In this document: piece by piece, positions 1 to 5,577 of the stretch
Layout of the letters: each line of letters opens with the position of its first letter
Numbering within the stretch: the first letter of the stretch is position 1
Source: a virus
Taxonomy: Duplodnaviria > Heunggongvirae > Uroviricota > Caudoviricetes
Reading direction: 5' to 3' (one strand)
DNA length: 5,577 nucleotides
IMG/VR virus record: IMGVR_UViG_2563366825_000014
Coordinates: 1 to 5,577 of that record
The notes under the pieces: generated by a model
Database searches by the model: none
Told to the model about the DNA's origin: nothing
The model's input: the letters and a program-made list of their open reading frames with translations, nothing else
Position numbers and translations under genes: made by a program

Positions 1-745
1 GACCTGCGGGGCCGGTTTCTCCCCGAGGGCCTGCGGGACCTGCCGGACCTGTTGCGCCGGGTTCACCTTTATCCCCTTTCGGGCCGGTTTGCCCTGCCGG
101 ACCCTGTGGTCCGGGTGGTCCGGGTGGTCCGGCCTCTCCACGTGGGCCGGTGTCACCTTTCGGCCCCGGCGGTCCGCCCGGGTCACCTTTATCGCCCTTC
201 GGTCCCTGTGGACCTGTTTCTCCCCGTTCTCCCTTTGGCCCCGGCTCACCTTTTGGTCCGACCGCCCCCGTTGCCCCGGCTGGTCCCTGTGCCCCTGTGG
301 CACCCTGTGGACCTGTGTCCCCCTTCTCGCCCGCCGGTCCCCGGGCATTCTCTGCCCGTTTCTTCGCTTCCTCTGCACTCGCCGCCGACGCTTCAGCACG
401 CTTCAGGATTTCCGCTGCCACCGCTTCCAGCTCTGCAAGCGCTTTCGGGTAATACTGCGCCTCATCCTGTTCCATCAGAAATTTATTCAGCGTTCCCGGC
501 TCAGAATCCGCCTTCACCAGAATGTCACCCACATACGACGGGGCGCACCCTTCCGTGTTCAGCGTCACCCGGTACCACCCCGGCTCCACATCAAAACTGT
601 AACTGCCGGTTTCCCCCGGCTGCCCCTGCGCCACCGTGGTGACTATCACTGTCTCTGTGGTGCGTCGCGCTTTCAGCTCTATGGTGCATCCCGGCACCGG
701 CTTCCCGGTGCCGTCCTTCAGCACGCCCGATATTCTGACTGTCAT
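1..745 (-). CDS. stf: Side tail fibre protein, lambda Stf-like: N-terminal domain (~135 aa) followed by collagen-like Gly-X-Y repeat region; partial, 3' end beyond window start
   Basis: ATG at 745..743 preceded by GGGAGA Shine-Dalgarno (plus 751-756 is its complement). Hand translation of the minus strand gives [38 protein letters not shown]..., which matches from memory the lambda Stf N-terminus ([17 protein letters not shown]...). From codon ~136 (plus 340 downward) the frame reads [113 protein letters not shown] and stays open to position 2. It is absent from the ORF track only because no stop lies inside the window. Confidence 0.85.
106..132. repeat. Perfect 3x tandem 9-bp repeat (GTGGTCCGG) inside the stf collagen-like region; encodes consecutive Gly-Pro-Pro / Gly-Pro-Gln triplets on the minus strand
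   Basis: Positions 106-114, 115-123 and 124-132 are each gtggtccgg. The unit length is a multiple of 3, so slippage would add or remove whole G-X-Y triplets in frame. Confidence 0.8.
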
Positions 746-758
746 AGATTTCTCCCAT

Positions 759-792
759 AAAAAAAAGCCCGCAGCAGTGACGCCACGGGCTT
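759..792 (-). terminator. Rho-independent terminator-like hairpin plus U8 tract, immediately upstream of the stf ribosome-binding site
   Basis: Minus-strand RNA reads AGCCCG-(14-nt loop)-CGGGCU followed by UUUUUUUU (plus 759-766 is an A8 run; stem arms are plus 766-771 and 786-791). The loop is longer than in a textbook terminator. Confidence 0.45.
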
Positions 793-825
793 CAGGACAG
801 TGTAACTTTACGTTTCCTCAAACGC

Positions 826-896: not shown

Positions 897-957
897 TCAG
901 AATCGGTATCCGGTGCCGACAATAAACGCATCCGTACGCCAGTCACCACGTCCTGAG
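897..957 (-). pseudogene. lom: Orphaned 3' end of lom (last 17 codons plus stop), separated from the rest of the gene by the IS insertion
   Basis: Minus-strand translation of 950..897 gives RGDWRTDAFIVGTGYRF-stop, which matches the lambda Lom C-terminus as I recall it (SGDWRTDGFIVGVGYKF). It is in frame with the 5' lom segment once the IS and one copy of the 7-bp repeat are removed. Positions 951-957 are the left copy of the target duplication. Confidence 0.85.
951..957. repeat. Target-site duplication, left copy (TCCTGAG)
   Basis: Identical 7-mer directly abuts both IS termini (951-957 and 3539-3545). The lom reading frame is continuous across the reconstructed empty site. Confidence 0.8.
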
Positions 958-1072
958 TGCGTATTACCGTGAAGGAGATCGGTGAGTAACATCGATGGAG
1001 ATCGGTTCGTGTCACTTTCACAGAACCGTTTTTAAATTACCTTCACTGATCTCCTTCGGTCAACGGAGATTG
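958..1072. repeat. Right end of the IS (downstream of istB): terminal inverted repeat plus sub-terminal repeats
   Basis: GGAGATC at 974-980 and 997-1003, its complement GATCTCC at 1048-1054, and a partial copy GGAGAT at 1065-1070. The 17-bp core TAACATCGATGGAGATC sits at 986-1002. Confidence 0.7.
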
Positions 1073-1792
1073 TATTTTCCGCATTGATTCTCCTTTAAGT
1101 TCGATCTTGATACTGCCATGAACCAGTCGATCTAGGATGGCATCCGCATGTGTGGAGTCTCCGATCATTTTGTACCAGTTTTCCACCGGCAACTGGCTCA
1201 CTACGATGATTGAGCCTCGTTGGTACATCAGATCCACTATTTCCAGCAGGTCGCTACGCTGTTCTGATGAGAGAGGTTCCAGCCCCCAGTCATCCAGAAG
1301 CAGCAGATCGCTATTATTCAGCCTGGTCAAAAGTTTGCTGTATCTTCCATCAGCATGCCCCTGATAGCACTGTTCCATCAGCGCTTTAAGGCGATAATAG
1401 TAGACCTTGTATCCCTGTCGGCAGGCATTATGACCAAGTGCACATGCCAGGAACGTTTTACCGCTGCCGGTGGCCCCGGTCAGTAAAATATTTTGTTTCA
1501 GGGTTAACCAGTTTCCCTGACTGAGTGAACGGATGAGGGCCCTGTCCAGCCCTCTATTGTTACGATAATCCAGCTTTGATAACTCAGCATTAAGTCTGAA
1601 CCGTGCATGTTTGATCAGACGCTCTGCCTTCCTGTTTTCACGGCAGGTTAGTTCTTCTGCTGTCAGTAATGACAGGCGTTCTTCGAAGCCCAGCTCCTGG
1701 TATGTGCCCGGCTGAGCAAGTTGCTTTTTAAGCGCATCACGGAAGCCGGTGAGTTTAAGTGCGGTCAGTTGTTCGTAAAGATGATTCATCAT
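1043..1792 (-). CDS. istB: IS21-family helper ATPase IstB (249 aa)
   Basis: Walker A motif GATGSGKT (in LLTGATGSGKTFLACALG) and Walker B-like LLLLDDWG are visible in the translation. Start lies 11 nt downstream of the istA stop, the usual IS21 arrangement. Confidence 0.93.
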   Translation of the reverse strand: MMNHLYEQLTALKLTGFRDALKKQLAQPGTYQELGFEERLSLLTAEELTCRENRKAERLIKHARFRLNAELSKLDYRNNRGLDRALIRSLSQGNWLTLKQNILLTGATGSGKTFLACALGHNACRQGYKVYYYRLKALMEQCYQGHADGRYSKLLTRLNNSDLLLLDDWGLEPLSSEQRSDLLEIVDLMYQRGSIIVVSQLPVENWYKMIGDSTHADAILDRLVHGSIKIELKGESMRKIQSPLTEGDQ

Positions 1793-1803
1793 TGGATCCC
1801 GTA

Positions 1804-3345
1804 TCAGTGGTAATACTCACTGCCGCGTACGTTTTCGTGTTCCATCGTGGATAACAGATCTGGTTTTGGATCCTGAACAGGTTGTTTATCCAGACCTTTT
1901 TCCAGGATCGATTTAATACCTGACAGACGCCATACCTTTGTTTTCAGAGCTCTTGCACATGCTGCATTAAGTCTGGCTTTACTGTATTTTTTATGAAGGT
2001 TCAGGAGTCCAAGGCAGAAGCGATAGCTTTGTTCCGGATGTGGACGAGAGTTCAGTATATGAAGCACATAACTATGAGTTTCACTGCCTATGTGCCCCGC
2101 CCATTCCAGAAGACGCTCTGGCGTCCAGGTGGCATGCTGTCGATGAGCTTCAGGCATGTGCTCGTTGCGGGTACTGTAGCCATAAGTACGCTTGCGCGGG
2201 TGCACAGCAACCTCCTGCCCCTGATTGAAGAGTCTTACCAGTTCTCCGGAGATCCATGCTTCCAGTTGCTGGCCTAACAGCGAACATGGAACCGAGTAGT
2301 AATGTTTGTCGATTTCCACGTGGTAATCGGCATGAACTCTGACTTTCTTCACCAGGGTGTAACTGTAACTGGCTTCAGGAAGAGGCTTCAGTGCGGGTTT
2401 ATCAAGCTGGATGAAGAGTTCTGCACGTGAATAACCCAACTTCTGCATTATTTTGTTATTCAGTCTTTCCAGCAACTCCCGAATGCGCTGATTAAGCGAT
2501 GCAAGGCTGTAGAAGATCTCATGCCTGATTCGGGCCATGATCCAGCGTTCAACAACCTGAACGCCAACTTCAGCTTTGGCTTTATCTTTCGGTTTACGTG
2601 GCCGCGCAGGCAAAACTGCGACATTATAATGCTCAAGCATCTGCTGGTAGGTAGGGTTAACGTCAGGATCATACTTACATGCCCTGGATGTGGCGCTTTT
2701 CAGATTGTCCGGAACAACAAGTTCAGGAACGCCACCCAACCACTGGAAGCAGCGAACATGACTCATCACCCAGTCTTCAAGCTGCTGAGACCAGGTGGCC
2801 TCTGCCCATGTGTAACTTGATGCCCCGAGAACAGCTACGATGACCTGAGCAGTTCTTATTTCTCCGGTCTCAGGGTCGGTAACGCCAACGGTAGGTCCAC
2901 AGTAATCAACGAAAAGTTTTTCGCCAGCTTTATGTACCTGACGCATTGATGGTGAAGTGGTTTTGAGCCATTCACGGTACATCCGGCAGTAATGGTTATA
3001 GCTGTAAAAACCGCCTGGATTACGCTCACAGTATTCTTCCCAGAGTAGCTGCAGCGTCACGCATTTATTACGCAGTTCCCGGTGTACTGTAGCCCAGTCA
3101 GGCAGAGAGTGCTTCTTCATCTTAACCTGGGTCTGAAGGAACGCATGTTTTAGTTTTGTATCATCCCATCCTGTAGGTAAGGGCCACTGCTTTATGCCAA
3201 GTTGAGCCGCCCGATTAGCATATCTGGATACAACGGAAGGGGAGATTGCAAGACTACGACCAATTTGTCGATGGCTGAGTCCAACACCGTATTTAAGCCT
3301 AAGAATTTCTTTAAGTTTTCTCATAGAAATTGGAACTGTTGGCAT
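1804..3345 (-). CDS. istA: IS21-family transposase IstA (513 aa), DDE-type
   Basis: N-terminal helix-turn-helix-like segment (LSHRQIGRSLAISPSVVSRY). Candidate catalytic acidic residues in FVDYCG, VVPDNLKSA and KAEVG contexts. AGGA-like Shine-Dalgarno 6-8 nt upstream of the ATG at 3345. Size and position directly upstream of istB. Confidence 0.93.
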   Translation of the reverse strand: MPTVPISMRKLKEILRLKYGVGLSHRQIGRSLAISPSVVSRYANRAAQLGIKQWPLPTGWDDTKLKHAFLQTQVKMKKHSLPDWATVHRELRNKCVTLQLLWEEYCERNPGGFYSYNHYCRMYREWLKTTSPSMRQVHKAGEKLFVDYCGPTVGVTDPETGEIRTAQVIVAVLGASSYTWAEATWSQQLEDWVMSHVRCFQWLGGVPELVVPDNLKSATSRACKYDPDVNPTYQQMLEHYNVAVLPARPRKPKDKAKAEVGVQVVERWIMARIRHEIFYSLASLNQRIRELLERLNNKIMQKLGYSRAELFIQLDKPALKPLPEASYSYTLVKKVRVHADYHVEIDKHYYSVPCSLLGQQLEAWISGELVRLFNQGQEVAVHPRKRTYGYSTRNEHMPEAHRQHATWTPERLLEWAGHIGSETHSYVLHILNSRPHPEQSYRFCLGLLNLHKKYSKARLNAACARALKTKVWRLSGIKSILEKGLDKQPVQDPKPDLLSTMEHENVRGSEYYH

Positions 3346-3400
3346 AGGTATCCTTTACCGGAATGGCAAAAGATACAGATCAACACACCTGTGAAGTTCC

Positions 3401-3538
3401 AATAACATTGATGGAGATCACTGAATAACAAAATGAGTCAAAAGTGATCTCCATCGATGTTATTCAGCGATCTGTTCAAATGTTATTACCCGATCTCGAT
3501 GGAAGTTATTGAGTGATCTCCTTTCATGAAAATACGCA
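3401..3538. repeat. Left end of the IS (upstream of istA): terminal inverted repeat plus multiple sub-terminal repeats, including a 22-bp inverted pair
   Basis: 3401-3422 aataacattgatggagatcact and the reverse complement of 3443-3464 (aataacatcgatggagatcact) differ at one position. Further GATCTCC/GGAGATC copies at 3413-3419, 3446-3452 and 3515-3521, and a partial copy at 3491-3497. Confidence 0.75.
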
Positions 3539-4084
3539 TCCTGAGGCTTCATAAGCCAGGTCGACCACGATATTTTCTGTCGGGTTAATCTGCACGCCTG
3601 CACTGTATGTCAGTGCGGTATGGCTGCGGCGTCCGCTGTCCGAACGGGTCAGGTGCTCCTGCTTTTTACCCTCATCTGACGTGAGGGTCACATAATCACC
3701 GGCAAAAGACGACACCCGGGCATACGACACTCCGGCCAGCGCATAAGCGCTGAACCATTCATTCACGCGCACAGATGGCCCCGCCATCACGCTGAACCAG
3801 CGGTTACGCACAGAATCCTCATGCCAGCGGGTATCGTTGTAGTGCGTTTTTTGCTCACCTTCAGCATTGGCATAACTGAATGACGTAATCAGCCCCAGCG
3901 TGTCCGTAAATTCATAACGGTATTTCACGTTAATCCCGTTCAGATCATCACTACCGGTAGTGTTCGTCAGGGCATGAAGATACCCCGCACTCAGCGTGGC
4001 CTGCTGCTCAGACGCCCATGCAGGCGCACCGGATACGGCCAGACAGATGGCTGCGGACAAAATGGCTGCACAAACTTTACGCAT
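3524..4084 (-). pseudogene. lom: lom-type outer-membrane protein gene (Lom/Ail/PagC/OmpX family), 5' 182 codons intact, C-terminus replaced by 4 IS-encoded residues (CVFS) and a stop inside the IS terminus
   Basis: Translation MRKVCAAILSAAICLAVSGAPAWASEQQATLSAGYLHA... closely matches the lambda Lom signal peptide and mature sequence from memory. GAGAGG Shine-Dalgarno upstream of the ATG at 4084. Lom homology ends at 3539; codons 3536..3524 lie within the IS. Confidence 0.88.
3539..3545. repeat. Target-site duplication, right copy (TCCTGAG)
   Basis: See left copy at 951-957. Confidence 0.8.
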
Positions 4085-4106: not shown

Positions 4107-4133
4107 ATAAAAAAGGCACCATTTCTGGCGCCC
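4107..4133 (-). terminator. Rho-independent terminator between J and lom (tJ-like)
   Basis: Minus-strand RNA reads GGCGCC-AGAAAU-GGUGCC (6-bp stem with one G-U pair) followed by UUUUUUAUU. Lies 19 nt after the J stop codon. Confidence 0.5.
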
Positions 4134-4151: not shown

Positions 4152-5577
4152 TCAGCTAATCGTGATGCCTGCAGTGGCTTTCTTCATCACCACAACCAGC
4201 AAATCGCTGATACTTGCTGTGGGATACCAGTTATTTACCAGCCATGCTGACACCGAAAACTCCAGTGTCATGTGACCGTGACCGGCAGGCATATCAATAA
4301 CGCCACTGTAAATCAGCGTATTATCCAGCGCGGTACGGTTATAAATTTCAGCACCGTTTTTCCGCACTATCAGACGGCATGAGGAGTAAATATCAGTATG
4401 CTCTCTCTCATGCTTAGCGCCACTGAATGCCACCGCCGGAATAACAATCTGCCGGTCAAACGGCTGATCGTCATAAACCCTGACGGTAATGGTCCCTGAT
4501 GGCCACCGCTCCGGTGCACGGGAATCCCGGGGGAAAGCTTTGCCCACTGTTTTAACGAGATCGCCTTCAATCTGGTTCGCGGACAGTTTTCCCAGAACCC
4601 GACAGTTCTCGTTAATCGTGACGTTGTTGAGCGTCCCGGAATTCGCATTCACGTTACCGCTGATATCAGCATTTCTTGCGGTCAGCCTGCCCTCCGGCGT
4701 CAGGGAAAACGTCGGGGGATTGCCGGACGAGGTGATACTCACCGCAAACAGCCGCTTCAGGAACACATCGTTCATGAACAACTGATTCCCCTGCGCCACA
4801 AATAACGGCGTGGTGTTGCCGTCCTCCGGGTTAATCATCGCAATACGGTCAGCCAGCAGCAGTATGTTGCTCAGGGGCTGGCCATCAGTATCCTCAATCC
4901 CCGCTCCAATACCGGCAACATAGGGTATGCCATTTTTTGTTTTCTGTACCTTCAGCATGTAAAGTGCAGCAAGGTCATCATTTGTGTCCTTCTGCACGCG
5001 CTGTATCTGCTGTATGGTGGCGCTCTGGTCCTCCAGCGTTTTACTGACCGTCTGTGTGATTTCATTGCGGGTTTCTGTGATGGTGGTCTGCATTTCCGCC
5101 ATCTCGTCCTTCAGCTTGCTGTTGTCAATCTCTGCCCACAACGCCTCTGCCAGATGTGTTTTTCCTATCTTTTCCCGGAAAAACTCCAGATAGCCCGCAG
5201 CATCATTGCTCGCCCGTCCACTGGCTTCCACAAAAGCAGATTTACCCACCAAGTTGACGCTGCGCACATAAAACCAGAAATCCTTTCCGGGCTTAATGTG
5301 CGGACCGGAGACACTCCACTGACTGCCGGTCCCCAGATAACGGGCAGAGGTTTCCACCTGTGCGGCGTCTGCAATTTTTGCCTCCGAAAACCAGAACTCA
5401 AACTGCACCGTCGGGTCATAAATGGTCAGTTTCGGGACTGCCGTTATCTGAAAATACCCCGGCGTCAGTTCAACACCGGCAGGCGCTGCCGGTGCGTTAA
5501 TCCGGAACGTGGTGGTGGCGGGTTCGCCCTGCTGGCCATAGCTGTTAATCGCCCTGACCGTCAGGGTGTATTCCCCG
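4152..5577 (-). CDS. J: Central tail fibre / host-specificity protein, lambda gpJ-like, C-terminal ~475 codons; partial, 5' end beyond window end
   Basis: Frame is open from the window edge (5576) to the stop at 4152. The M at 5408 in the ORF track is an internal GTG, not the start. Translation contains ...[27 protein letters not shown]...YLGTG...[17 protein letters not shown]...VAGIG...[19 protein letters not shown]...[15 protein letters not shown]...DMPAG..., matching the lambda J C-terminal region as I recall it. Position upstream of lom matches lambda gene order. Confidence 0.88.

Follow-up and report, generated by a model that had tools for sequence, protein, structure and literature searches.

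ISEc12 in the 3' part of lom in a lambda-like Escherichia coli prophage, with a 7-bp target duplication

The window analysed here, a 5,577-nt stretch of a tailed-phage record (IMGVR_UViG_2563366825_000014) that derives from draft scaffold KE136652.1 of assembly GCA_000407805.1, carries the outer-membrane protein gene lom in two pieces on either side of an insertion sequence. This raises the question of which element separates the pieces, how it came to lie there and what remains of the gene. We are confident, at a probability of about 0.96, that ISEc12 transposed into lom, a gene flanked by J and the side tail-fibre gene in this lambda-like prophage of E. coli, at codon ~181-182, and no observation speaks against this reading. 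The element is a common, already catalogued E. coli ISEc12, and the event is ordinary and already known in kind.

Identity and boundaries of the element

Positions 958-3538 (minus strand) hold a complete, 2,581-bp copy of ISEc12, an IS21-family element, with its istA-proximal (conventional left) end at 3538 and its istB-proximal end at 958. The IS21 family spans about 2-2.75 kb, a range into which this length fits. The initial annotation had recognised an IS21-family element and proposed a search that would name it; the stretch is 100% identical over 2,581/2,581 bp to many RefSeq-annotated copies, and the name rests on the gene label that these identical copies bear ('IS21-like element ISEc12 family').

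The two genes follow the IS21 layout, istA and then istB on the same strand with an 11-nt gap, and both products exceed the curated cut-offs for IS21 equivalogs. istA (1804-3345, minus strand) encodes a 513-aa DDE transposase with Pfam domains rve and Mu-transpos_C_2, scoring 310 bits against NCBIfam NF033546 (IS21 family transposase; cut-off 160). The only solved structures that it matches are those of IS5376 IstA (8q4d/8b4h; E = 3e-13, residues 107-389), and D147, D213 and E259, which fall in columns conserved with 8q4d in a phmmer alignment, are its candidate catalytic residues. istB (1043-1792, minus strand) encodes a 249-aa AAA+ helper ATPase (248 aa in RefSeq, where the start is placed one codon later) that matches Pfam IstB_IS21 (E = 2.2e-67) and scores 270 bits against NCBIfam NF038214 (IS21 helper ATPase; cut-off 200). 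It contains a Walker A motif, GATGSGKT, from residue 106 and a Walker B motif, LLLLDD, at 163; its top three structure matches are all IS5376 proteins (8q3w/8q4d/5bq5), and it is also homologous to DnaC/DnaA.

The element begins with TG and ends with CA, reading TGCGTATT from 958 and AATACGCA up to 3538. These ends are inverted repeats, matching at 8/8 positions at the tips and at 13/16 between 958-973 and 3523-3538, and a repeat search found no extension outward beyond 958 or 3538. Since the boundaries of 20 other ISEc12 copies, at unrelated loci, fall on these very bases, the placement of the TG...CA ends is not due to chance, and the termini first proposed at 958 and 3538 stand to the base. 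Inside each end lies a terminal region with GGAGATC-centred repeats: 958-1060 on the istB-proximal side, comprising the terminal inverted repeat and three such repeats (975, 998 and, inverted, 1048), and 3395-3538 on the istA-proximal side, comprising the inverted repeat and four (3414, 3446, 3492 and 3515). Of nine GAGATC/GATCTC hexamers across the element, seven sit in these two regions, and the repeats are presumed IstA binding sites. No outward or hybrid promoter emerged: a consensus scan was negative for promoter-like sites at both junctions, visual inspection revealed no -35/-10 match that draws on the flanking DNA, and an Rfam scan of the window found no RNA family. The copy is apparently functional, and we infer continuing activity.

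The interrupted gene and its empty site

The flanking genes are those of a lambdoid prophage, in which J and the side tail fibre are the neighbours of lom. Upstream of lom, 4152-5577 (minus strand) encodes the C-terminal 474 codons of tail tip protein J (Pfam Ig_J, Ig_J_second, Phage_Tail_Tip and Ig_GpJ_C), whose counterpart is annotated gpJ in matching prophages; downstream, 1-745 (minus strand) encodes the N-terminal 248 codons of a side tail fibre with collagen-like repeats (Pfam phage_tail_N and Collagen), an annotation that agrees in three matching loci (L001; L026, an uninterrupted prophage in a complete E. coli genome; and L027, phage PhiR5_1). Both genes are cut by the window edge. Terminator-like hairpins, both on the minus strand, lie downstream of lom (764-793, a 13-pair stem with a T run after it) and between J and lom (4114-4133).

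The 5' part of lom occupies 3546-4084 (minus strand) and, with the 3539-3545 repeat copy added, supplies codons 1-182. The 3' remnant at 897-950 (minus strand), together with the copy at 951-957, supplies the last 17 residues (RGDWRTDAFIVGTGYRF) and the stop; the source assembly annotates a 31-aa Ail_Lom fragment at this remnant. Deletion of 958-3545, that is, the element and one repeat, yields a 600-nt ORF of 199 codons and a stop, ending in RGDWRTDAFIVGTGYRF, as the initial annotation had anticipated when it held that excision rejoins lom in frame. The rebuilt protein covers 1-199/199 positions of Pfam Ail_Lom (PF06316; E = 1.7e-126, 420 bits) and is 100% identical to WP_032217644.1, which is annotated Ail/Lom and lies between gpJ and the tail fibre in L026; its homologue in PhiR5_1 is annotated Lom.

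As it stands, the ORF at 3524-4084 encodes 186 aa, of which the last four, CVFS, are element-encoded, so that the truncated Lom lacks its last 17 residues and gains these four. Missing from it are thus the last beta-strand and the aromatic residue at the C-terminus that outer-membrane barrels require for assembly, and therefore the insertion of ISEc12 has almost certainly inactivated lom.

The empty site exists in nature. A 200-nt reconstructed junction is found uninterrupted, with a single TCCTGAG, in 22 complete E. coli genomes (99.0-99.5% identity), which answers the search that the initial annotation had proposed. The full empty site, 803 nt long, reaches 99.9% identity in five genomes and 99.4% in PhiR5_1, and a 58-mer spanning the rejoined junction matches both L026 and PhiR5_1 exactly. 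Compared end to end, the window without the element (2,989 bp) is 99.13% identical to the L026 prophage and 98.39% identical to PhiR5_1. As far as the window reaches, the tail genes on either side are undamaged; the description of the tail region as otherwise intact holds over that extent, where the J and tail-fibre ORFs stay open to the edges and identity to the uninterrupted prophage is 99.1%.

The target duplication and the origin of the interruption

TCCTGAG stands on both sides of the element, at 951-957 and at 3539-3545 (lom nt 540-546), and once in the empty site, in agreement with the 7-bp duplication first described. Among 20 other ISEc12 copies, the duplication measures 5 bp in ten, 6 bp in two, 7 bp in four and 8 bp in one, and three have none; since four of the 20 share the 7-bp length, we regard it as a normal minority outcome for an element whose modal value is 5 bp. 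IS21-family elements duplicate 4-8 bp of target, so the earlier remark that 7 bp falls within the family range is borne out, with ISEc12 itself measured at 5-8 bp. A 5-bp duplication lengthened by chance was considered and ruled out by the single TCCTGAG in the empty site and by the ends fixed by the 20 copies. No clear target consensus emerged across 18 ISEc12 duplications. CTGA recurs among them, and the second batch of copies was drawn from a list biased to flanks like those of the TCCTGAG site.

IS21-family biology suggests how such a duplication would arise. IstA would bind the GGAGATC-type repeats at each end, and IstB would capture the target DNA and activate IstA; the 3'-OH ends of the element would then attack the target strands 7 nt apart, and gap repair would leave TCCTGAG duplicated.

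Two other origins have to be weighed, both very improbable. The first is homologous recombination between pre-existing ISEc12 copies, or mosaic exchange between prophages, rather than direct transposition into lom. The three surveyed copies without direct repeats imply that IS-mediated rearrangements occur, and lom alleles are indeed mosaic, that of L001 differing over the first ~135 nt. However, recombination of two IS copies would leave non-matching flanks, whereas those observed here are contiguous in one lom allele and rejoin exactly, with a single TCCTGAG, into a gene whose protein is 100% identical to that of an uninterrupted allele; an already interrupted lom may have been imported by phage recombination, but even then the interruption would trace back to a transposition into lom. 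The second, just as improbable, is an assembly artefact in which a multi-copy IS was mis-scaffolded into the lom of a draft genome between coincidental 7-mers: the window is a stretch of KE136652.1 between runs of N (which may be scaffold gaps or masking), and many E. coli genomes hold several ISEc12 copies (median 3 places per carrier genome, roughly 5,500 places across complete genomes), but mis-joining would not yield a perfect 7-bp duplication that is single in the empty site, a signature of transposition, and contigs of two other assemblies, GCA_013520055.1 and ENA ERZ1673746, read from lom directly into the istA-proximal end of ISEc12 at the same base.

The istB-side junction (957/958) is seen in the source assembly only, and a search with both junctions found the occupied TCCTGAG site in 0/5,426 complete E. 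coli genomes. Apparent occupied-site matches in about 340 genomes traced to another ISEc12 insertion, within a diverged lom. Two further assemblies share the lom-ISEc12 junction of the window, so this insertion has been inherited or has spread beyond a single isolate. Direct transposition into lom, which the initial annotation had called recent and clean, is indeed clean; 'recent' applies only in a relative sense, given those two assemblies.

Significance and relation to known insertions

Beyond annotation, the locus carries little weight: what it identifies is a pseudogene of lom, plus one complete ISEc12, in a single E. coli lineage. The lom-ISEc12 junction is, in turn, a clean marker for tracking the lineage or the prophage. 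Duplications of 5-8 bp and repeated co-oriented insertions in prophage tail and accessory genes offer small leads on the behaviour of ISEc12, which leave knowledge of IS21-family transposition unchanged. Four independent ISEc12 insertions in the J-lom-stf-tfa region are all co-oriented with the interrupted genes, and among 13 genic insertions examined, 10 are co-oriented and 3 opposed. It is conceivable, though we think it unlikely, that ISEc12 prefers this end of lambdoid prophages in the co-oriented sense, and that the variable length of its duplication, 5-8 bp, may stem from a flexible target bent by IstB. If true, the target or orientation preference would be a bias so far undescribed for ISEc12.

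The nearest known systems are other insertions of the same element. RefSeq ISEc12 copies and the published insertion in tssM of ST131, which has a 5-bp duplication (PMC10711316), share with the present case the sequence, the ends, the istA-istB layout, gene disruption and a short target duplication; ours differs only in its site (lom nt 540-546) and in duplicating 7 bp where 5 bp is the mode. A different position in lom is occupied by ISEc12 in about 342 complete genomes of E. coli, ST131 reference strains among them (for example JJ1887, NZ_CP014316). That insertion shares with ours the element (1 mismatch in 2,581), the gene family, the prophage position flanked by gpJ and the tail fibre, and the orientation to lom, but its site is about 167 bp upstream of ours, in an allele of lom only about 81-83% identical, and its duplication is 5 bp, AAAGT; it is an event independent of the insertion at TCCTGAG. 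A literature search found no biochemical work on ISEc12 itself. The experimentally studied IS21 and IS5376 resemble it in possessing istA and istB, TG...CA termini, several internal repeats at each end and target duplications that are short and vary in length, while they are only distantly related to it in sequence.

ISEc12 insertion in lom and its empty site

The window carries a complete ISEc12 element whose genes are intact and whose ends are exactly defined; it is flanked by a 7-bp duplication, and an empty site that matches it exists. Read directly, the window contains TCCTGAG twice (951-957 and 3539-3545), and between the two copies the element starts with TGCGTATT at 958 and finishes with AATACGCA, whose last base is 3538, giving a length of 2,581 bp (958-3538); all coordinates and sequences in the initial annotation were correct. 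A repeat search identified inverted repeats at the element tips that are perfect over 8 bp and match at 13 of the first 16 nt, and at neither element end in the window can the terminal inverted repeat be extended outwards. According to an ORF scan, all coding in the window lies on the minus strand, comprising the C-terminal ORF of the tail-tip protein J (5577..4152), a 186-aa ORF running into the element (4084..3524), istA (3345..1804, 513 aa), istB (1792..1043, 249 aa) and a tail-fibre N-terminal ORF (745..1). The reading frames of J and the tail-fibre gene stay open as far as the window edges. The gene order in matching records (J, lom, a tail fibre with an N-terminal prophage domain, and DUF4376 or a tail-fibre assembly protein) confirms a lambdoid prophage context. 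Terminator-like hairpins on the lom strand (minus) flank lom at 4133..4114, after J, and 793..764, after lom, a layout like that of a self-contained accessory ('moron'-like) cassette. Within window 1-350 (minus), the tail-fibre N-terminal ORF passes into a long series of collagen-like Gly-X-Y repeats, matched by Pfam Collagen; just past the window edge on this side, the fetched locus continues as a run of N.

Removal of 958-3545 yields a 600-nt ORF whose 199-aa product has the C-terminus RGDWRTDAFIVGTGYRF, matches Pfam Ail_Lom over positions 1 to 199 of 199 (E = 1.7e-126) and has the same amino-acid sequence as WP_032217644.1. The empty site predicted in the initial annotation exists uninterrupted: a 200-nt query (100 nt from either flank, TCCTGAG included once) matched over its full length in 22 complete E. 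coli genomes at 99.0-99.5%, always within an annotated Ail/Lom gene, and a junction-spanning 40-mer was exact in the first of these genomes. The reconstructed 803-nt lom region shows 99.9% identity in five genomes and 99.4% in Escherichia phage PhiR5_1, whose complete genome record names the gene Lom. The IS-deleted window (2,989 bp) aligns end-to-end, with one gap, to a prophage of strain UPEC-245U/190328 (99.13%) and to PhiR5_1 (98.39%); relative to the former, the lone nucleotide difference in lom is synonymous and lies 48 nt from the duplicated 7-mer. The intact lom of NZ_AP022815 (3040-3639 of fetched locus L001) has 3 differences from the window lom from nt 136 onward and 42 in the first 135 nt, which encode the signal peptide and first strand. 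The lom alleles are mosaic.

An exact-protein look-up with the truncated 186-aa product gave three contigs. One stretch of scaffold KE136652.1 (GCA_000407805.1), which has runs of N on either side in the locus as fetched, matches the reverse complement of the window exactly. In two further contigs, one of 1,620 bp (GCA_013520055.1) and one of 645 bp (ENA assembly ERZ1673746), lom runs into the istA-proximal end at the same base as in the window, so this junction is real and common to several samples; the window's occupied site was present in 0 of 5,426 complete E. coli genomes. It is possible that an already interrupted lom was imported with a phage segment, although the ultimate origin would still be transposition into lom. 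Recombination between IS copies is an unlikely route of arrival, since the flanks rejoin as one known allele, and the perfect duplication, together with the independent contigs, makes mis-assembly of the lom/element join unlikely. The transposition into lom described in the initial annotation is real and was interpreted correctly.

Duplication length and other ISEc12 insertions

A script read the flanks of 20 other full-length ISEc12 copies, located at unrelated sites on chromosomes and plasmids; 9 of the 20 were drawn from a match list biased to flanks resembling the window's. All 20 start with TGCGTA and finish with TACGCA, the same bases as the window element, which fixes its boundaries independently of the window locus. 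The flanking direct repeat is 5 bp in ten copies, 6 bp in two, 7 bp in four and 8 bp in one; three copies have none and are probably rearranged. A 7-bp duplication falls within this 5-8 bp range and is therefore an ordinary minority outcome (4/20). Duplication length varies although the element is identical, and this spread is a minor lead. CTGA occurs within several longer duplications (TCCTGAG, CCCTGAC, CCCTGAA and GCTGATG), in a sample partly selected for flank similarity.

In about 342 complete genomes, among them ST131 references such as E. coli JJ1887 (NZ_CP014316; 4638-7823 of fetched locus L002), ISEc12 also interrupts a different lom allele (about 81-83% identical). There the element has the orientation seen in the window but sits about 167 bp more upstream, and its duplication is 5 bp (AAAGT); this is an independent event. 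Further insertions were observed in gpJ of strain 25-07338 (NZ_CM147701; 5-bp duplication CCTCC), where the target sequence is identical to window 4656-4730 and the duplication equivalent to 4691-4695, and in a tail-fibre assembly gene of strain KE47 (NZ_CP141089; 8-bp duplication). The four ISEc12 insertions observed in the J-lom-stf-tfa region all point in the direction of the phage genes, a minor lead; of 13 genic insertions examined, 10 share the orientation of the gene and 3 oppose it, a split that is not significant.

Consequence and proposed mechanism

After insertion, CVFS substitutes for the last 17 residues of Lom, and the final beta-strand and C-terminal aromatic residue are lost. 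Outer-membrane barrels need a C-terminal aromatic residue for assembly; consequently, the insertion has very probably turned lom into a null allele. The element has 0 mismatches to many ISEc12 copies and its flanks are nearly identical to uninterrupted alleles, a degree of sequence identity that indicates an evolutionarily recent event, as the initial annotation had suggested.

Based on established IS21-family biology and structural work on IS5376, IstA would bind repeated sites at both ends, IstB would assemble on target DNA and activate IstA, and strand transfer with a 7-nt stagger followed by gap repair would double TCCTGAG. Abutted ends are the configuration of an IS21-type tandem or circular intermediate. 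Hypothetically joined, 958-975 and 3520-3538 would read TTCACG-N(14+x)-TATTTT, and with a 2-4 bp junction could possibly form a junction promoter driving istA.

Identity of the element and comparison with known systems

By megablast, 958-3538 matched in 1,909 of 5,426 complete E. coli genomes; identity is 100% across all 2,581 bases for many copies, with genes annotated 'IS21-like element ISEc12 family'. In many genomes ISEc12 is itself split by a nested IS3-family insertion of about 1.3 kb, which lengthens the record span from 2,581 to about 3,894 bp; two matches have this insertion annotated as IS1203 family. The element is catalogued and the event already known in kind: disruption of tssM by ISEc12 in ST131, with a 5-bp duplication, has been described (PMC10711316). 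The insertion in lom represents common insertion-sequence behaviour in dispensable prophage genes.

The proposed IS21-family assignment is supported by domain, family and structure matches. IstA carries an rve integrase core and a Mu-transposase C-terminal domain, and IstB matches IstB_IS21 (Pfam); against the curated thresholds of the NCBIfam IS21 equivalog models, IstA scores 310 bits (cut-off 160) and IstB 270 bits (cut-off 200). A Walker A motif (GATGSGKT) and a Walker B motif (LLLLDD) are present in IstB. The only solved structures matched by the window IstA are those of IS5376 IstA, in whose alignment D147, D213 and E259 fall in conserved columns, and the top three structure matches of IstB are to IS5376 IstB. 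Several copies of a GGAGATC-centred repeat occur at each element end, with 7 of 9 occurrences of its hexamer within the terminal ~100 and ~145 bp; ends with multiple sites of this kind are typical of IS21-family elements.
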